Source: a virus
DNA: 64,000 nucleotides
Strand: one strand, 5' to 3'
Virus record (IMG/VR): IMGVR_UViG_3300020416_000001
Span: 107,757-171,756 of that record
Every line of letters begins with the position of its first letter. The first letter of the stretch is position 1. Made by a program: the position numbers and the translations under genes. Positions 25,073 through 45,240 of the stretch are shown piece after piece. Under the pieces are notes generated by a model that was given only the letters and a program-made list of their open reading frames with translations, did not search any database and had not been told where the DNA came from.

Positions 25073-25279
25073 TGTAAGGCAAGGACGCTTGTTTTACTGG
25101 GAGTGACTGAATAACCCTGTTGGAATTAGGCGGGGTAATGTAAACGGTCAGGGGTGGTGCCCGCTTCTTCGGAAGAACTTCTTACCAGAAGGACTGTTGT
25201 TGTTATGTACTAATTTTCGCACTAGCGATTCCCATAACTTGTAGGTATAATGTATTCCTACCTCCCACCCAACCTTACA
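25073..25279 (+). ncRNA. manA-like structured RNA
   Basis: Closing stems TGTAAGG/CCTTACA and GGGAG/CTCCC; GGGAGTGACTGAATAA..GGAATTAGGCGGGGTAATG..GGTGGTG core recalled from the cyanophage manA motif; begins at the predicted TSS. Confidence 0.7.
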
Positions 25280-35954: not shown

Positions 35955-38251
35955 ACGTAATTAAAAGAGACGGCACTGCTGTCCCTCTCAACCTAGACAA
36001 AGTGCATAAAATGGTTGAGTTAGCGTGTGAAGGTCTTACAGGTGTAAGCGAATCACAAGTTGAAATGAATGCAAATATTCAATTCTTTGAAGGTATCAAG
36101 ACCTCAGAGATTCAAGAGATCCTTATCAGGTCAGCAAGTGATCTGATCAGTATGGATACACCCAACTATCAATACGTTGCTGCACGTCTTCTATTGTTTG
36201 ATGTTCGCAAGCAGGTATTCCCTGAGTGGGCAGACGAGATTGGATACCCACACCTCCACGATCACGTACAACGTTGCGCTGAGGCAGGAGTGTATGACGC
36301 TGCCATTCTAAATAAATATAGTCCGCCAGAGTGGGACCTGCTCAACAGTTTTATTGACCACGAAAGATGTATGGGGTTCACCTATGCAGGTCTGAGACAG
36401 ATTGTAGATAAGTATCTTGTACAGGATAGAAGCACTGGGATTCTCTATGAGACACCTCAGTATATGTACATTATGGTAGCAGCAACACTCTTCCAAGACT
36501 ATCCAAAAAACAGTCGTTTAGAGTATGTACAACGCTACTACACAGCAACCTCCAAAGGAAAAATCAACCTCCCAACACCAGTCTTGGCAGGAGTTCGGAC
36601 TCCGATGCGACAGTTTGCTTCTTGTGTTCTTGTTGATGTTGATGACACCCTCGATGGTATCTTTAGTAGTGATATGGCGATTGGCAAATATGTTGCACAA
36701 CGTGCGGGTATCGGCATCAACGCAGGCAGGATCCGTGGTATCAACTCTAAGATCAGAGGCGGAGAGGTACAACACACAGGTGTGGTCCCCTTCCTTAAAA
36801 AGTTTGAATCAACTGTCAGATGCTGCACTCAAAACGGCATCCGAGGTGGTTCTGCTACAGTCCACTTTCCTATCTGGCATCAGGAAATCGAAGACATCCT
36901 CGTCCTCAAAAACAACAAAGGAACCGAAGACAACAGAGTCAGGAAACTAGACTACAGTATTCAAATTAGTAAACTATTCTACGAGAGGTTTATTCAAGGT
37001 GAAACAATCTCCCTATTCTCTCCTCACGACGTTCCTGGTCTTTATGATGCCTTTGGGACTGATGATTTTGATCTACTTTACACCAAGTACGAACAGGATA
37101 AATCGATCCCTAGAAGGACTGTCTCCGCCAACGAGATTATCCTCTCCTTACTAAAAGAAAGAGCAGAGACTGGTCGTATTTACATTATGAATATCGACCA
37201 CTGTAACAGTCACAGTTCGTTCAAAGACAAGGTTAATATGTCTAACCTATGTCAAGAGATTACACTGCCCACAGACCCGATTTCACACATCGATGACGAT
37301 GGTGGAGAGATCGCATTGTGTATCCTATCTGCAATCAATGTAGGTAAACTTCGTAACCTCAATGAGATGGAGGAACTATGTGATCTTGCAGTCCGTGGAC
37401 TAGAAGAACTTATTGATTATCAAAAGTATCCTGTGAAGGCAGCAGAGCGTTCTACTCTTGCACGTCGTTCACTTGGTGTTGGTTATATTGGTCTTGCACA
37501 TTACCTTGCTAAGAATGGATTTAAGTATGATGATCAGGGTGCATATGACATCGTTCATCAACTAACTGAGTCCTTCCAATACAACCTTCTCAAGGCATCT
37601 AATGCTATTGCAATGGAGAAAGGACCGTGTGATGCATTCCAACACACAAAGTATGCAGATGGAATTTTTCCTATCGATACATATAAGAGTGAGGTAGATG
37701 AAATAACATCGGTAGAACTTGCTTATGATTGGGAAGGTCTTAGGAATTCTGTTAAAGAGCACGGTCTAAGACACAGTACACTGTCCGCTCAAATGCCAAG
37801 CGAGAGCAGTTCGGTAGTGTCAAATGCTACTAATGGAATTGAACCACCCAGAGATTATCTTTCTATTAAGAAATCAAAGAAAGGTCCACTTAAGCAAATT
37901 GTACCAGGGTTTCCATACCTAAAAAATAAATACACCCTCCTATGGGATATGCCTTCTAATGAAGGTTACATAAAAATTGTCGCCGTGATGCAAAAGTTCT
38001 TCGACCAAGCAATCTCAGGCAACTGGAGTTATAATCCAGGTAATTATGATAATAACGAAGTACCTTCTTCCGTTATGGCAATGGACCTATTGACAACCTA
38101 CAAATACGGTTGGAAGACAAGTTACTATCATAACACTTATGATAATAAGAAAGATGGTGAAGAAGAACCAACCACATCAACATCACAAGTTGATCAACTA
38201 GTAAACGAACTTTTGGAGGCAGAGGAAGACTGTGACAGTTGCAAAGTTTAA
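35951..38251 (+). CDS. nrdA: Ribonucleotide reductase class Ia alpha subunit
   Basis: ATP cone VIKRDG, PTPVLAG, SCVL, SNLCQEI, C-terminal CDSCKV. Confidence 0.98.
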   Translation: MNVIKRDGTAVPLNLDKVHKMVELACEGLTGVSESQVEMNANIQFFEGIKTSEIQEILIRSASDLISMDTPNYQYVAARLLLFDVRKQVFPEWADEIGYPHLHDHVQRCAEAGVYDAAILNKYSPPEWDLLNSFIDHERCMGFTYAGLRQIVDKYLVQDRSTGILYETPQYMYIMVAATLFQDYPKNSRLEYVQRYYTATSKGKINLPTPVLAGVRTPMRQFASCVLVDVDDTLDGIFSSDMAIGKYVAQRAGIGINAGRIRGINSKIRGGEVQHTGVVPFLKKFESTVRCCTQNGIRGGSATVHFPIWHQEIEDILVLKNNKGTEDNRVRKLDYSIQISKLFYERFIQGETISLFSPHDVPGLYDAFGTDDFDLLYTKYEQDKSIPRRTVSANEIILSLLKERAETGRIYIMNIDHCNSHSSFKDKVNMSNLCQEITLPTDPISHIDDDGGEIALCILSAINVGKLRNLNEMEELCDLAVRGLEELIDYQKYPVKAAERSTLARRSLGVGYIGLAHYLAKNGFKYDDQGAYDIVHQLTESFQYNLLKASNAIAMEKGPCDAFQHTKYADGIFPIDTYKSEVDEITSVELAYDWEGLRNSVKEHGLRHSTLSAQMPSESSSVVSNATNGIEPPRDYLSIKKSKKGPLKQIVPGFPYLKNKYTLLWDMPSNEGYIKIVAVMQKFFDQAISGNWSYNPGNYDNNEVPSSVMAMDLLTTYKYGWKTSYYHNTYDNKKDGEEEPTTSTSQVDQLVNELLEAEEDCDSCKV

Positions 38252-39431
38252 GATCTCAACTGGTGGGAACGATCCACGACAGCGCAAAGGCATTGAGAAC
38301 GTAACAGTTTTCAATCAAGCACAACACGACACAACAAAACAACCTATGTTCTTTGGACAACCCTTGGGTGTTCAGAGATACGACGGAGCAAAGTATCCAG
38401 TCTTTGATAGACTGACTAACTCCCAACTTGGTTTCTTCTGGAGACCCGAAGAGGTCTCACTTCAGAAGGACAGATCCGATTTTCAATCTTTATCTGATGC
38501 ACAAAAACACATCTTCACATCAAACCTCAGATACCAGATCCTCCTTGACTCCGTACAAGGTCGTGGTCCTGGTCTTGCTTTCATTCCTTATTGCTCTCTA
38601 CCCGAGTTAGAATCTGCTATGATTGCGTGGGAGTTTATGGAAATGATCCACTCTAGATCCTACACGTACATCATTAAAAATGTTTATGCAAACCCTGAGC
38701 AGATTTTTGATACTATTCTTGATGACGAGAAGATCATCGCTCGTGCCAAATCTGTTACTGAAGCGTATGATGAGTTCATCAACTTTGCTCAGCAATGGGG
38801 ACAAGGTAACTGGTGGAAAGAAGGTTGGAGAGATTCACCGTCTGCATCTTGGGAGAAGAAAGAACTTAAGCGCAGACTTTATAGAGCAATTATGAATGTG
38901 AATATCCTTGAGGGTATTCGTTTCTATGTTTCATTTGCTTGTTCTTTTGGGTTCGGTGAACTCAAGAAGATGGAAGGATCTGCAAAGATCATTTCTCTTA
39001 TTGCACGTGATGAGTCACAGCACCTTGTGATTACACAAAACATCATTAACAACTGGAGGAAAGGTGATGATCCTGATATGCTAGAGATCATCGACGAAGA
39101 GAAAGGTAACGTTATCGAGATGTTCGAGCGTTGCGTAAACGAAGAGAAAGACTGGGCAGAGTATCTATTCAAAGAAGGATCTATGATCGGACTCAATGCC
39201 AAACTTCTTACTCAGTATGTGAAATGGATCGCTAATAGAAGAATGAAAACTATTGGCATCGATCCAATCTATGATGTACCTGCTAGAAACAATCCTCTTC
39301 CTTGGACTAATCATTGGTTGAACTCTAAAGGTCAACAGAATGCACCACAGGAAACAGAGATTGAATCATATGTTGTTGGTGCAATCAAACAGGACATCAA
39401 GAAAGATACGTTCTCTGGATTCAAACTTTAA
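38232..39431 (+). CDS. nrdB: Ribonucleotide reductase beta subunit
   Basis: FWRPEE, LDSVQGR, EMIHSRSY, EGIRFY, RDESQH. Confidence 0.97.
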   Translation: MTVAKFKISTGGNDPRQRKGIENVTVFNQAQHDTTKQPMFFGQPLGVQRYDGAKYPVFDRLTNSQLGFFWRPEEVSLQKDRSDFQSLSDAQKHIFTSNLRYQILLDSVQGRGPGLAFIPYCSLPELESAMIAWEFMEMIHSRSYTYIIKNVYANPEQIFDTILDDEKIIARAKSVTEAYDEFINFAQQWGQGNWWKEGWRDSPSASWEKKELKRRLYRAIMNVNILEGIRFYVSFACSFGFGELKKMEGSAKIISLIARDESQHLVITQNIINNWRKGDDPDMLEIIDEEKGNVIEMFERCVNEEKDWAEYLFKEGSMIGLNAKLLTQYVKWIANRRMKTIGIDPIYDVPARNNPLPWTNHWLNSKGQQNAPQETEIESYVVGAIKQDIKKDTFSGFKL

Positions 39432-39433
39432 CT

Positions 39434-40063
39434 ATGTTTATTGGTGATGTCCCGACCTCTGTGTCGGAACCCATCAAGGCAAGACTATTGAATAGTCCTT
39501 ATTGGCCTTGGTATATGATTACTGAAACCACAGGGTATGACCCTAAGTTCAACGATTCTATCCCCGATGAAATGTCGGGGGAGGATCCCCAATTTCAACA
39601 CACAGTTGTAAACAACCACGGAGAAATCGCATCCCAACACGCTTGGGATATTGTGGTTGAACCACTGTGGAAATATATTCAAGAGAATTACGATGCTGAA
39701 CTTGGAGACTTTGAAAAGTTCAGACGTATCAAGATCAATCTATTAACAAAGAAAGAGTCTAAGCATCTATACCACACACCACACGTTGATTATGATTTCC
39801 CTCATACAACGCTGTTGTATTATGTGAATGACTCGGATGGTCCTACCTTCTTCTTCAATGAGAAGTACGATGGGTCACGAAAGAAACTGACGCTGAAAGA
39901 AAAGATCGAACCACGTCAAGGTAGGTTTATTATCTTTGACGGTCATACTTTTCACGCAAGCAGTAATCCGCAGTACAACGATTACAGATGCATAATCAAC
40001 TTAAATTACATCTCAAGTTCCTCAGGCAACTTAAGCGGGATCTTAAACGAGATAAAGGTATAG
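39434..40063 (+). CDS. Putative 2OG-Fe(II) oxygenase (HxD)
   Basis: TPHVD, LYYVNDSDGPT, FDG..HASS..RCIIN. Confidence 0.75.
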   Translation: MFIGDVPTSVSEPIKARLLNSPYWPWYMITETTGYDPKFNDSIPDEMSGEDPQFQHTVVNNHGEIASQHAWDIVVEPLWKYIQENYDAELGDFEKFRRIKINLLTKKESKHLYHTPHVDYDFPHTTLLYYVNDSDGPTFFFNEKYDGSRKKLTLKEKIEPRQGRFIIFDGHTFHASSNPQYNDYRCIINLNYISSSSGNLSGILNEIKV

Positions 40064-40084: not shown

Positions 40085-40140
40085 GTAACAACCGTTACAA
40101 AAAGAAAAATATTGCTAAATAGATCTGGGTATGCTAACAT
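40085..40140 (+). promoter_or_regulatory. NtcA-like box plus sigma70 promoter
   Basis: GTA-ACAACCGT-TAC (40085-40098); TTGCTA-17-TAACAT (40112-40140), with CTAAATA inside. Confidence 0.55.
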
Positions 40141-40147
40141 ACCTTTA

Positions 40148-40192
40148 CGTTCATCCTCTCATCAGAGTGGACGCAAGTAAGTCGCGGAACGG
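40148..40192 (+). ncRNA. Downstream-peptide (glutamine-II) riboswitch aptamer 1
   Basis: CGTTCA-TCC..GGACGCA..GTCGCGGAACG with P1 CGTTC/GAACG. Confidence 0.8.
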
Positions 40193-40194
40193 AG

Positions 40195-40387
40195 CGTTCA
40201 TCCCACTATGTTAATGCACTTGTTGTTATTAATGTACACGGACATTCATTGTTCGGATGCCCTTGGAATTATCCAAAGAGTCGTGGACAATGATAGACTC
40301 AGCAACGCTGAGAAAGTCGAATTGGTACAGGTTATTCAAGAGGCAACTCCTGACTGTACTTGGGACGCATACGACTGAAGGAACGGG
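40195..40387 (+). ncRNA. Downstream-peptide (glutamine-II) riboswitch aptamer 2 with an about 155 nt loop insertion
   Basis: CGTTCA-TCCCA ... TGGGA-CGCATACGACTGAAGGAACGGG. Confidence 0.72.
40208..40378 (+). CDS. 56 aa ORF nested within riboswitch aptamer 2
   Basis: MLMHLLLLMYTDIHCSDALGIIQRVVDNDRLSNAEKVELVQVIQEATPDCTWDAYD*; GGAG at 40191. Confidence 0.62.
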   Translation: MLMHLLLLMYTDIHCSDALGIIQRVVDNDRLSNAEKVELVQVIQEATPDCTWDAYD

Positions 40388-40418
40388 GCAAAAATCCCTA
40401 CTACTTTGGAGTAAACCA

Positions 40419-40562
40419 ATGACAACCATTACTTATCGTGGCGTCAAGTATGACGCTGAGCAGTACAAAGCAAAGGTACTTGCCGAGGCAGATCAAATTC
40501 GTAATCACGAAATGATGTACCGTGGAATTAAGGTCGAGCGTAAGTTCGCCTCCAAGTCCTAA
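40419..40562 (+). CDS. DUF4278 downstream peptide (47 aa)
   Basis: Two YRG motifs (TYRGVKY, MYRGIK); SD GGAG; follows the riboswitch. Confidence 0.85.
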   Translation: MTTITYRGVKYDAEQYKAKVLAEADQIRNHEMMYRGIKVERKFASKS

Positions 40563-40583
40563 GCAAGCAAATTTGTTGAGTTT

Positions 40584-40618
40584 AAGACCCTTCACAGGGT
40601 CTTTTTTTATGCTAGGAT
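40584..40618 (+). terminator. Terminator overlapping the probable talC promoter
   Basis: AAGACCCT-TCAC-AGGGTCTT plus T tract; TTCACA-16-TAGGAT. Confidence 0.7.
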
Positions 40619-40652: not shown

Positions 40653-41321
40653 ATGAAGATCTTTTTAGATTGTTCAGACCCCGAACTTATCCAACACGCG
40701 ATGGAGACTAACCTCATCGACGGTGTTACAACTAACCCTTCTCTTATGCTTAAGGCAGGGAGGAATCCAAGAGACGTTATTCAAGAGATCAGTGATCTAT
40801 TCTCTTGGGATGCTTCAATTTCAGCAGAGGTTATGGGTGATACTGCTGAGGAAATGCTCGAAGCAGCAAACGAATATTTTAGTATTGCACCCAACGTTAC
40901 TATCAAACTACCCTGCACACGTGAAGGATTGATCGCCTGTGGTGATCTGTCTGCAGATGGTATCAGTACAAACGTTACACTAATCTTCTCAGTCGCACAA
41001 GCGATCCTCGCTGCAAAGGCAGGAGCATCTATGATGTCTCCGTTTGTTGGCAGACTGAATGACAATTCTTTCTCAGGTATTGCACTGGTCCAAGCGATCT
41101 CTAGAGTCTATCGTTTGCATAACGTAGAGACTGAGATCCTCGCTGCATCTGTACGCGAAGTGAACCACGTAGCACGTTGCTTTGATGCAGGAGCAGACAT
41201 TGTGACTATGCCATATGAAGTCTTCGAGAAAATGTACAAGCACATTCTCACACAGAATGGTCTTGAGAGGTTCGAGAACGACTGGGCAAAACTTCAAGAA
41301 GAATTACACATAGACGAATGA
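40653..41321 (+). CDS. talC: Transaldolase (TalC)
   Basis: IFLD, GVTTNPSL, IKLP, NVTLIFS, SPFVGRL, LAASVR. Confidence 0.95.
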   Translation: MKIFLDCSDPELIQHAMETNLIDGVTTNPSLMLKAGRNPRDVIQEISDLFSWDASISAEVMGDTAEEMLEAANEYFSIAPNVTIKLPCTREGLIACGDLSADGISTNVTLIFSVAQAILAAKAGASMMSPFVGRLNDNSFSGIALVQAISRVYRLHNVETEILAASVREVNHVARCFDAGADIVTMPYEVFEKMYKHILTQNGLERFENDWAKLQEELHIDE

Positions 41322-41583: not shown

Positions 41584-41740
41584 AAGAAATCTCAAAGTCT
41601 TAATAGAAGACATCGAAAGAGCACTGGCAGCATTAAAATCTGAAGTGTATTCAGACACTGCTGCATACAGTATAAGTAGTGATAGTGATAAGACTACTAC
41701 TTACCTTGACATCAACGACGAAGACGGACTCTGCGATTGA
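41576..41740 (+). CDS. Small hypothetical protein (54 aa)
   Basis: MHKRNLKVLIEDIERALAALKSEVYSD.., acidic tail. Confidence 0.6.
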   Translation: MHKRNLKVLIEDIERALAALKSEVYSDTAAYSISSDSDKTTTYLDINDEDGLCD

Positions 41741-42182
41741 TTATGAAAACCCCTGGATTTTTAACGGACTCCCTTTTTTATCTGAGAGCATTGACAATAA
41801 TTTCGGTTTTGTCTATCGGATTACAAATATTGAATCGGGTCGGGAATACATTGGAAGAAAATACTTCTGGCAGAAACGAAAACCTAGAGGTAAGAGTCGG
41901 AGAGTTACAAGTGAAAGCGACTGGAAAAAATACTACGGATCGTGTCCTGAACTTACTCTTGATGTTAAGCGACTTGGTAGAGATCGATTTAGAAGAGAGA
42001 TCCTATCCCTACACCCCACCGTTGGACAGACAAACTTTGCAGAAACTAGAGAACTCTTCATTAGAGGTGTCCTTACCGAAGCAAGAGAGGATGGAACACC
42101 CCACTATTACAACTCCAACATTCTAGGACGGTACTACAGGAAAGATTATTTTCCGTACCCCTTGACAGAGGATCAAAAGTGA
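41679..42182 (+). CDS. GIY-YIG endonuclease
   Basis: GFVYRITN..EYIGRK, YYGS, FRREIL, YYNSNI; start uncertain (TTG 41706 possible). Confidence 0.85.
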   Translation: MIVIRLLLTLTSTTKTDSAIDYENPWIFNGLPFLSESIDNNFGFVYRITNIESGREYIGRKYFWQKRKPRGKSRRVTSESDWKKYYGSCPELTLDVKRLGRDRFRREILSLHPTVGQTNFAETRELFIRGVLTEAREDGTPHYYNSNILGRYYRKDYFPYPLTEDQK

Positions 42183-42375: not shown

Positions 42376-42449
42376 GGGTCAGTAGCACAGTGGATTAGTG
42401 CAACTGCCTTCTAAGCAGTCGGTCGCAGGTTCGAATCCTGCCTGACCCG
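42376..42449 (+). tRNA. tRNA-Arg(TCT), no encoded CCA
   Basis: Acceptor GGGTCAG/CTGACCC, anticodon arm ACTGC-CTTCTAA-GCAGT, T loop GTTCGAATC. Confidence 0.95.
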
Positions 42450-45122: not shown

Positions 45123-45135
45123 CATTTACATATAC

Positions 45136-45240
45136 TTCCTCTCCGCAAACCGAGACCTATAGGGAGGTTAAACGAGTCTCTAATACCTATCCCCGAGGGT
45201 GGGATATGGAATATTACCTTCACTGTTCCCTGCAGTATTA
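45136..45240 (+). ncRNA. PhotoRC-II-like RNA in the psbA 5' UTR
   Basis: AAACCGAGACCTATAGGGAGG..GTCTCTAATACC..GAGGG..GGAATA core recalled from the cyanophage psbA leader motif; GAGAC/GTCTC and ATCCC/GGGAT stems. Confidence 0.72.

Follow-up and report, generated by a model that had tools for sequence, protein, structure and literature searches.

Riboswitch aptamers are usually viewed as compact, non-coding and self-contained, and family scans assume as much; the cyanophage RNA described here breaks all three expectations. The glycine riboswitch is a tandem with two cores of the same class in one leader, arranged side by side and each with its own P1. Group I introns tolerate a whole protein gene in a peripheral hairpin loop, and in phage MS2 the replicase start is masked by a pairing that opens when the coat gene is translated. 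Among glutamine-binding RNAs, the pocket nucleotides are C1, G2:C39, G18, C19:G41, and G40 (PMC6698751), and glutamine riboswitches that lie before DUF4278 genes are ON switches (PMC6212724). In crystals the glutamine-II RNA is a dimer with exchanged strands, and it is also functional in two pieces (PMC6698751), so strand exchange is sterically possible. Our literature search found no paper on an interlocked sensor with a nested gene.

The window examined here comprises 64,000 nt of the IMG/VR virus record IMGVR_UViG_3300020416_000001, and its positions 40148-40411 form the 5' region of the mRNA of a small phage operon, with a glutamine-sensor-like RNA. The full explanation that we favour, and regard as fairly probable, is an interlocked double sensor that contains a nested gene, binds glutamine, and acts as a reciprocal switch. 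The features of the locus are listed below with the basis of each call.

40085-40098, strand not assigned: GTA-N8-TAC palindrome GTAACAACCGTTAC, NtcA-box-like (sequence reading)
40112-40140, + strand: sigma-70-like promoter, TTGCTA-17 nt-TAACAT (sequence reading)
40148-40153, + strand: a1, CGUUC, the 5' strand of P1o, plus an unpaired A (CGTTCA in the DNA) (covariation)
40154-40171, + strand: P2o hairpin (covarying)
40172-40185, + strand: c1 linker, CGCAAGTAAGTCGC (match to the glnA consensus CGgAAGUA and covariation of P3)
40180-40184 with 40372-40376, + strand: P3 helix, AGUCG:CGACU (covariation)
40186-40192, + strand: a1', GGAACGG, a strand of P1i (covariation)
40191-40194, + strand: GGAG, the sole SD-like motif for the nested ORF (sequence)
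40195-40200, + strand: a2, CGUUC, the other strand of P1i, plus an unpaired A (CGTTCA in the DNA) (covariation)
40201-40205, + strand: UCCCA, the 5' strand of P2i (covariation, four pairs)
40208-40378, + strand: nested ORF, 56 aa, ATG at 40208 and TGA at 40376-40378 (cyanophage T4-like gene cluster 430, phrog_504)
40361-40365, + strand: UGGGA, the 3' strand of P2i, also a Trp codon and the first bases of an Asp codon (covariation)
40366-40380, + strand: c2 linker, within the last codons of the nested ORF (covariation; bases kept without the ORF)
40375-40411, + strand: alternative "mask" hairpin (RNAalifold, 75 loci)
40380-40386, + strand: a2', GGAACGG, the 3' strand of P1o (covariation)
40419-40562, + strand: YRG-motif peptide gene, 47 aa, DUF4278/IF17-like, phrog_5049 (profile matches)
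40584-40610, + strand: intrinsic terminator, an 8-bp stem at 40584-40603 followed by a T-run (terminator scan)

A sequence-only reading of this DNA had listed the half-sites, the ORF, its GGAG, the YRG gene, and the terminator that follows it, and all of these were confirmed where it had placed them.

The arrangement recurs widely. The order of parts is kept in >250 IMG/VR cyanophage contigs, and the layout is present in 9 named phages, with isolates that include Syn9, S-SM1, S-SSM5, and P-RSM4; Syn9, S-SM1, S-SM2, and S-BM1 also share it. All relatives encode a YRG-motif peptide in the corresponding slot. Since this order recurs in so many contigs and the long-range stems covary, the pattern is far beyond chance. 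A search of 185,579 species genomes for an exact 18-mer gave 20 matches, 16 of them chance-like and 4 carrying the module; all 4 of the latter are on MAG contigs, a result that does not imply cellular absence. In some contigs, a GIY-YIG homing-endonuclease gene or its remnant sits between the middle strands. We had considered that the first unit might be missing from some loci and rejected this, as the endonuclease gene or remnant separates the middle strands there.

Upstream of the sensor, the palindrome lies ~55 nt 5' of the predicted transcript start, and P-RSM4-like loci have similar GTA-N8-TAC palindromes immediately 5' of the first CGTTCA; we regard the 40085-40098 element as a candidate NtcA-box-like site. 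The promoter predicts an RNA start at ~40147, i.e., the first base of the sensor. A promoter scanner run on the window did not call TTGCTA-17 nt-TAACAT; relatives carry TTGAC-N17-TATAAT at the equivalent position relative to CGTTCA. Metatranscriptome contigs contain exact pieces of the locus (40127-40204, 40175-40322, and 40411-40570), in which transcript ends are not resolvable and DNA carry-over is possible.

The four P1 strands of the window are all of the common type, so that two pairing schemes are possible. The sequence-only reading had proposed self-contained tandem aptamers in series: the nested ORF would be controlled by aptamer 1 (40148-40192) and the DUF4278-like gene by the long aptamer 2 (40195-40385), which ribosomes would melt. 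In the window each local pairing is free of mismatches, the minimum-free-energy (MFE) fold uses the compact first aptamer, cmscan aligns each unit as a local aptamer, and tandem glnA RNAs are known (PMC2864571). We nevertheless consider this arrangement unlikely, because the covarying partner of the first CGUUC is the last GAACG, and that of the middle GAACG is the CGUUC next to it. Independent-tandem pairing is mismatched at position 5:36 in 62/148 and 65/148 loci, whereas the exchanged pairing is intact. At position 5 of P1o, the pair with the far GGAACGG is C:G (n = 139 sequences) or U:A (n = 5), and each locus with a far GAAACGG (16/16) has CGUUUA in the first 5' strand. At position 36 of P1i, the pair is G:C in 83/148 sequences, C:G in 65/148, and unpaired in 0; a search for A or U at this position of the middle strand found no instance. 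The four combinations that occur (C:G/G:C, C:G/C:G, U:A/C:G, and U:A/G:C) are all Watson-Crick only with the interlocked pairing. In addition, P3, which joins both linkers, cannot nest with two separate aptamers.

Scored on 148 distinct loci, the interlocked structure has 99.5% pairing and 9 pairs in which both sides changed, with the provisos that the loci were retrieved with patterns fixing some segments and that C:G to U:A and G:C to C:G may each have arisen once and spread via recombination. The cores in these loci do not each close with their own P1, as the aptamers of an independent tandem would. Comparison shows all five helices and indicates that 40148-40411 is one interlocked double sensor with exchanged strands and one helix common to both cores. 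Of the two tandem Downstream-peptide-type aptamers proposed earlier, both sets of half-sites are present; the covariation interlocks them, and the outer core is glnA-like. Two other arrangements, the middle GAACG:CGUUC hairpin as an anti-aptamer "off" helix and a circularly permuted aptamer closed by two P2 strands, were dropped, as the far strands and P3 covary.

In the outer core, P1o pairs 40148-52 with 40381-85 (99.6% of cells paired) and is followed by the single unpaired A40153 and the P2o hairpin, whose stem base covaries (UA/AU/GC). The P2o loop of Syn9 and P-RSM4-type phages carries another ORF (GC429 family, phrog_6471), whose stop codon covaries with that stem (UCUU/UAA, UCUC/UGA, UCCU/UAG). 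The junction strand CGCAAGUA (40172-79) consists of CGC at 40172-74, the counterparts of pocket C17 G18 C19, and the E-loop-like AAGUA at 40175-79; its partner is the junction UGAAG at 40376-80. P3 is paired in 99.9% of cells, with 20/20 variants compensated, and it encloses ~185 nt, unlike the P3 of known glnA RNA members. The outer core is, on these sequence features, a glnA-type three-way junction (P1o, P2o, CGC-AAGUA, P3, GAAG) and looks more like the glnA type, with its AAGUA...GAAG and P3, than the Downstream-peptide type.

The inner core sits inside P3 and is without an AAGUA/GAAG junction. P1i (40187-91 with 40195-99) is a hairpin with a 3-nt loop, and P2i closes around the nested ORF. 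All four tested P2i pairs (40201-40204 with 40362-40365) covary (UA/CG/GC; CG/UG/AU; CG/UG/UA; CG/UA/UG), with 99.7% of cells paired; the fifth pair, A40205:U40361, is a sequence reading only. The linker that follows, CGCATACGACTGAA (40366-40379), holds CGC at 40366-68 for the inner-core pocket and CGACU at 40372-76 as the 3' strand of P3, and c2 ends in UGAAG at 40376-80, which comprises the E-loop-like GAAG and includes the stop codon of the nested ORF.

Searches with family models gave a partial view of this RNA. At the gathering threshold, Rfam returned no match in the window; below it, the Downstream-peptide search proposed earlier did find the compact first unit (Glutamine-II, 23.9 bits vs 33), as did the glnA model (22.0 vs 35), while the split unit was unmatched. 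In relatives, RF01739 (glnA) scores 25-31 bits and RF01704 (Glutamine-II) 22-29 bits (gathering 33). ORF-free natural relatives stood in for a loop-deleted window in this covariance-model scan, and the second unit of one of them reached 32.8 vs 35. The Rfam models cannot see the split unit. The RF01739 features that we found are the CGUUC/GAACG P1, a P2 after an unpaired A, and CG-N-AAGUA/GAAG flanking P3. As for the P2 of RF01704, no stem is contiguous with both GGAACGG sides, and the mask helix resembles it on the 5' side only. The pocket counterparts are invariant in both cores across 148 loci, except for the last-strand G41 (145/148). From these kept nucleotides we infer that each core is a putative L-glutamine binder.

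The codon pattern of the nested ORF shows coding selection and marks it as a real gene. Codon-position diversity is 0.38/0.17/0.52 in the ORF body and drops to 0.08/0.01/0.02 in the last five codons, which shows RNA-level constraint on the latter; the sequence of this tail persists in ORF-free relatives. The protein ends in W-D-A-Y-D, and an AlphaFold2 model (pLDDT 80.8) predicts a two-helix mini-protein with two conserved Cys, a fold that indicated no function. A Pfam search with the protein gave nothing significant, and a word-based homologue search gave only 2 matches. Its GGAG overlaps the end of P1i and the 3-nt loop and stands 13 nt from the ATG in the window and 10 nt in most relatives. 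Several earlier proposals about this gene held up when relatives were compared: a conserved ORF is enclosed in full by a stem of the glutamine-aptamer-like RNA, with TCCCA/TGGGA covarying across cyanophages and the frame conserved in a coding pattern; its last codons are aptamer sequence (TGGGA at 40361-40365 and the linker at 40366-40379); and its SD overlaps the GGAACGG strand (40191-40194 vs 40186-40192).

Downstream, the YRG protein has two YRG motifs and scores 24.8 bits against a Pfam DUF4278 (PF14105) cut-off of 25.3, with E = 2.8e-24 for phrog_5049; its relatives are annotated DUF4278. The mask hairpin, which also appears in the MFE fold of the window, pairs CUGAAG at 40375-80 with CUUUGG at 40404-09 and GGGG at 40385-88 with CCCU at 40396-99. 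By using the 3' strands of P3 and P1o, it buries the SD of the YRG gene, GGAG at 40408-11. The middle base of the nested stop codon takes part in the mask (A:U 24, G:C 23, G:U 27, A:C 0).

Because the 3' strand can alternatively pair with the downstream SD, these structures suggest a reciprocal switch in which the folded sensor would turn the nested gene off and the YRG gene on; the sign of this regulation is read solely from the mutually exclusive pairings. Glutamine would stabilise the folded state, burying the nested SD (in P1i) and start (by P2i) and leaving the YRG SD free; unfolding would allow translation of the nested gene and mask the YRG gene. Since P2i closes around a real gene, sensor folding and nested-gene translation would have to compete. 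Ribosomes on the nested gene would occupy P2i, P3, and P1o together with the stop codon, and the sensor would thereby be held unfolded. The earlier proposal that these ribosomes must melt the sensor is supported. The accompanying scheme, in which aptamer 1 gates the ORF and aptamer 2 the DUF4278 gene, did not survive: the ORF SD and start lie in the inner core, and it is the outer core, built from the first 5' and last 3' strands, that would compete with the anti-SD helix of the DUF4278-like gene.

Terminating ribosomes would transiently open the mask; the YRG gene would then be exposed as well, and the reciprocal switch would be less clean.

The position of the stop codon within a covarying mask helix, together with the sub-threshold Rfam scores, would also suit translational coupling only, with helices that keep the YRG SD masked until translation of the nested ORF is complete and aptamers that are non-sensing relics. 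We judge this improbable. In ORF-free versions both cores and the mask are retained in full, which means that coupling cannot be the only purpose; moreover, the pocket counterparts are all invariant across hundreds of diverged loci, and five helices far exceed what a mask needs. That the blocks are instead recombination or homing cassette borders, akin to the promoter-stem-loop cassettes of T4-type phages, or protein-binding sites, with no RNA sensor, is very improbable: the same slots do hold different ORF families, the GIY-YIG endonuclease gene is inserted precisely between two blocks in some contigs, and stem-loop promoters lie 5' of the unit, but DNA-level roles leave unexplained both the compensatory same-strand changes 230-800 nt apart and the match to the glutamine-aptamer core sequence.

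Returning to the interlocked double sensor, we tentatively propose that glutamine selects between the two genes. The bound fold would silence the nested gene and turn on the IF17-like YRG gene, and nested translation would block sensor folding, giving a ribosome-coupled, possibly hysteretic two-output riboswitch with which a cyanophage may read host nitrogen status in infection. The phrog_504, phrog_6471, and YRG peptides are probably linked to host nitrogen status in phages infecting the ocean's main phototrophs. In this RNA, covariation-backed helices span 230 to 800 nt, cores swap strands, and whole genes lie in loops. As standard scans miss a split sensor, more may exist in phage, and perhaps cellular, genomes. 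The locus also offers a natural setting in which to test how ribosomes compete directly with RNA folding that depends on a ligand.

Among known systems, MS2 is alike in that a start site is masked by base pairing that spans a coding region upstream, and ribosomes on the upstream gene melt this pairing; MS2 is without a ligand-sensing core, whereas the phage masking strand doubles as part of the sensor. Group I introns are ribozymes with a mobility-gene ORF, whereas the phage ORF sits in a riboswitch-like sensor whose stems incorporate the start and stop of that ORF. Tandem glnA RNAs (PMC2864571) likewise have two ligand-binding cores of the same class per leader; known tandems are side-by-side aptamers, each with its own P1, whereas the phage RNA has exchanged P1 strands, a shared helix, and internal coding sequence.

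Glutamine-II RNA (Downstream-peptide, RF01704; PMC6698751) shares the pocket nucleotides, and its crystal dimer exchanges strands as the phage RNA does within one chain; its two-piece form still binds, and it precedes YRG peptides in marine picocyanobacteria. The phage RNA differs in having no P2 stem hugging the GGAACGG loop, in the P3 and E-loop-like junction of its outer core, and in cores that are covalently joined and nested. The type 1 glnA RNA of the Synechocystis gifB/IF17 leader (PMC6212724) resembles it in the CGUUC/GAACG P1, the unpaired A, the P2 hairpin, CG-N-AAGUA, P3, GAAG, a DUF4278-type gene downstream, and a ribosome-binding site hidden by alternative pairing. Unlike this RNA, the phage version, which scores below Rfam gathering and whose binding is putative, has a P1 that spans 230 to 800 nt, a P2 that houses another gene in some phages, and a P3 that holds a complete second core and a protein gene.

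The window derives from a T4-like cyanomyovirus (record length 171,756 bases), and its sensor locus occupies the nrdB–talC gap, which carries small genes in many cyanophages. Every part named in the sequence-only reading, including the YRG-motif peptide gene and terminator that follow the nested ORF, was recovered at the position it had been assigned.

Parts of the sensor locus and its neighbors (window coordinates)
38232-39431: nrdB, upstream neighbor
39434-40063: 2OG-Fe(II) oxygenase-like gene, upstream neighbor
40148-53: first CGTTCA (strand a1)
40154-71: hairpin after the first CGTTCA
40172-85: CGCAAGTAAGTCGC, between the hairpin and the first GGAACGG
40186-92: first GGAACGG (strand a1')
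40191-94: GGAG, Shine-Dalgarno-like for the nested ORF
40195-205: second CGTTCA-TCCCA (strand a2 and stem)
ATG 40208, stop 40376-78: nested ORF, 56 codons ending W-D-A-Y-D-stop
40361-65: TGGGA
40366-79: CGCATACGACTGAA, between TGGGA and the last GGAACGG
40380-86: last GGAACGG (strand a2')
40419-40562: YRG-motif gene, 47 codons
40584-40603: terminator, downstream of the YRG-motif gene
40653-41321: transaldolase talC, downstream neighbor

The product of 40419-40562 reaches 24.8 bits for DUF4278, where the cut-off is 25.3, and matches phrog_5049 with E 2.8e-24. Of the proposed pair of glutamine aptamers, Rfam picked up only the compact first unit, at sub-threshold scores (Glutamine-II, 23.9 bits versus 33; glnA type, 22 versus 35), and the second, split unit was not detected. 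Elsewhere, the window carries two known cyanophage RNA motifs, manA (25078-25271, 127.6 bits) and PhotoRC-II (45126-45222, 64.8 bits), and a 167-codon ORF (41679-42182; GFVYRITN...REYIGRK) resembling a GIY-YIG homing endonuclease, shortly followed by a tRNA (42376-42449). A perfect GTA-N8-TAC palindrome (40085-98) precedes TTGCTA-17-TAACAT (window 40085-40140), its center about 55 nt before the predicted transcript start; activators usually sit at -41.5, and this palindrome is placed elsewhere. In six loci resembling that of phage P-RSM4 (L006, L004, L074, L087, L025, and L266), such a palindrome lies immediately 5' of the first CGTTCA, often preceded by a TATAAATA late-promoter motif.

Three IMG/VR pattern scans, each with at least 120 matches, provided 213 unique loci for analysis. 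The patterns fixed some segments; each test leaned on segments left free. The common letters occupy all four P1 strands in 82 of the 213 loci. Another 64 combine a1' GCAACGG with a2 CGUUGA, a1 and a2' being unchanged, and 8 add a1 CGUUUA and a2' GAAACGG to that exchange. A dedicated scan found 17 contigs with a non-G at this a2' position, all reading GAAACGG; a1 is CGUUUA in all 16 that include the upstream part, one of which retains the common a1' and a2. Only by matching a1 with a2' and a1' with a2 do all four strand combinations come out Watson-Crick, indicating from sequence comparison that the two aptamers are interlocked. Aligning 148 distinct loci gives, for a1':a2, G:C in 83 and C:G in 65 with no locus unpaired; for a1:a2' it gives C:G in 139 and U:A in 5, the three other cases being loci in which a1 was mis-anchored by our script. 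The independent tandem pairing originally proposed fails here, as the tested P1 pair (position 5:36) would be mismatched in 62 and 65 of the 148 loci. Because the window itself has the common letters, its own pairing is read from its relatives. Each compensatory state may have arisen in one event and spread by recombination.

Both pairs are kept, across ~600 and ~800 nt, in five contigs carrying a 192-codon GIY-YIG-like gene between a1' and a2. This homing endonuclease-like ORF (start MIYYTYYS...GYIGS; L144:2256-2834, also L163, L212, L222, and L225) is an insertion bounded exactly by the middle GGAACGG on one side and CGTTCA on the other, and two further loci (L081 and L117) hold endonuclease remnants consisting of the first and last codons only. 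The last strand is GGAACGA in L026, L160, and L173; behind it come first a terminator-like hairpin and then another ACGTTCATCCC, suggesting that one more sensor unit lies in series.

The remaining helices also covary. In the ORF-enclosing stem (40201-04 with 40362-65), where a check for TCCCA/TGGGA covariation had been suggested, all four pairs tested covary and 99.7% are paired. For P3, AGUCG (40180-84) with CGACU (40372-76), loci gathered by scanning for variants at the second base of the 5' strand show compensation in 20 of 20 analyzable unique cases: AAUCG with CGAUU in 16 and AUUCG with CGAAU in 4, among them P-RSM4. Over the 148 loci the full nested five-helix structure is 99.5% paired with 9 pairs changed on both sides, a score approached by none of 500 column shuffles and no ±3 slide. 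The minimum free energy (MFE) fold pairs GCGUUC (40194-40199) with GGACGC (40363-40368; the stem 3' strand and CGC), possibly one more alternative, in which the inner core would be blocked.

The nested ORF belongs to phrog_504, in which two Cys, one Arg, and one Glu persist even where identity falls to 23%. Across codon positions 1/2/3 of the ORF body, nucleotide diversity averages 0.38/0.17/0.52, a pattern pointing to purifying selection on a protein. Its last five codons, described previously as aptamer sequence, show 0.08/0.01/0.02, with the residual variation non-synonymous (N/H/Y); this low diversity recurs in a subset retrieved without fixing the tail. ORF-free relatives, whose stem is a plain tetraloop hairpin, retain GGGA-CGCAAACGACU(A/G)AA-GGAACGG. 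The near-invariant codons and their persistence in these relatives argue that the C-terminal WDAND-stop is dictated by RNA; the ORF is a real gene with an RNA-constrained tail. AlphaFold2 (62 homologues, pLDDT 80.8) predicts helices 15-26 and 33-46, with Cys15 near Cys50.

Syn9, P-RSM4, and 30 other loci have a further gene (GC429 family, phrog_6471, 65-68 aa) enclosed by the outer P2, whose stem there covaries with that gene's stop codon (UCUU/UAA, UCUC/UGA, UCCU/UAG). The GC429-family CDS as deposited for S-8S55 (L009:1067-1201) takes an ATG inside the frame as its start; a PHROG profile of 66 positions and the RNA layout both favor an upstream ATG after CGTTCATCC. In seven loci (L040, L099, L103, L072, L134, L025, and L050) the inner stem holds other small ORF families, all with a hydrophobic N-terminus, two Cys, and a (R/W/K)DAND ending, some resembling signal peptides (MKFLLPLLLLTSPTYAGEY...); phrog_504 and phrog_6471 may be their distant paralogues.

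Downstream, RNAalifold (75 loci) predicts a masking hairpin between CGACU(A/G)AAG and CUU(U/C)AGGAG, the latter being the next gene's Shine-Dalgarno. Its first strand runs from the 3' strand of P3 through the stop codon to the first G of a2'; the GG(G) that comes next in a2' forms a second part of the hairpin with a (Y)CC lying downstream. At the stop codon's middle base, the pair is A:U in 24 sequences, G:C in 23, G:U in 27, and A:C in none. In the window this mask (40375-80 with 40404-09 and 40385-88 with 40396-99) is part of the MFE fold. The mask and the folded sensor exclude each other, because P3 and the outer P1 draw on the bases of this hairpin; these comparisons demonstrate both the helices and this exclusivity. 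In every locus the mask is followed by a gene for a YRG-motif peptide (phrog_5049 or phrog_545).

The same part order is found in nine named phages of different genera (S-SSM4, ACG-2014b, S-SSM5, P-RSM1, P-TIM40, P-RSM4, S-SKS1, S-P4, and S-8S55), where the nested ORF is annotated 'T4-like GC 430', and in Syn9 (gp196, gp197, gp198), S-SM1, S-SM2, and S-BM1. The window's phage genome has one copy. Searching 185,579 species genomes with an exact 18-mer across the middle junction located the module in only 4 contigs, all from MAGs. Exact pieces of the region in metatranscriptome contigs offer a weak hint of transcription only; in one relative, a different insert, 160 nt long, occupies the same stem.

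Glutamine binding and the direction of control we infer; where glutamine riboswitches precede DUF4278 genes, they act as ON switches (PMC6212724). With glutamine, the interlocked fold would form and the mask open, so that the YRG peptide is produced, and the nested gene's GGAG would be buried in the a1':a2 helix end together with its start, which lies 3 nt from the stem in the window and within the stem in most relatives. When glutamine is lacking, the nested gene would be open to ribosomes and the mask closed over the YRG gene. While reading the nested gene, ribosomes would sit over the stem, P3, the stop codon, and a2', so translation would hold the sensor open; termination could open the mask for a moment, allowing some coupling to the YRG gene. 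The net effect may be a clean reciprocal switch.

Earlier work describes tandem glnA RNAs as well as glutamine riboswitches of T4-like cyanophages (PMC9964418, PMC2864571); our literature search found no paper describing nested genes, exchanged P1 strands, or a shared P3. The outer core has the same order as the type 1 (glnA) glutamine aptamer, namely P1, A, P2, CGCAAGUA, P3, UGAAG, P1, and agrees with the glnA model consensus CGgAAGUA...GAAGGAACG. Within P3 lies the second core, built from the a1':a2 hairpin (3-nt loop), the stem that bears the ORF, and a CGC of its own. In the crystal structure glutamine is contacted by C1, G2:C39 with G18, G40, and the long-range C19:G41 pair (PMC6698751), and the counterparts of these nucleotides are invariant in both cores of our alignment. 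Glutamine-II RNA crystallized as a strand-exchanged dimer and retains binding when split in two (PMC6698751), a structural precedent for intrachain strand exchange in the phage RNA.
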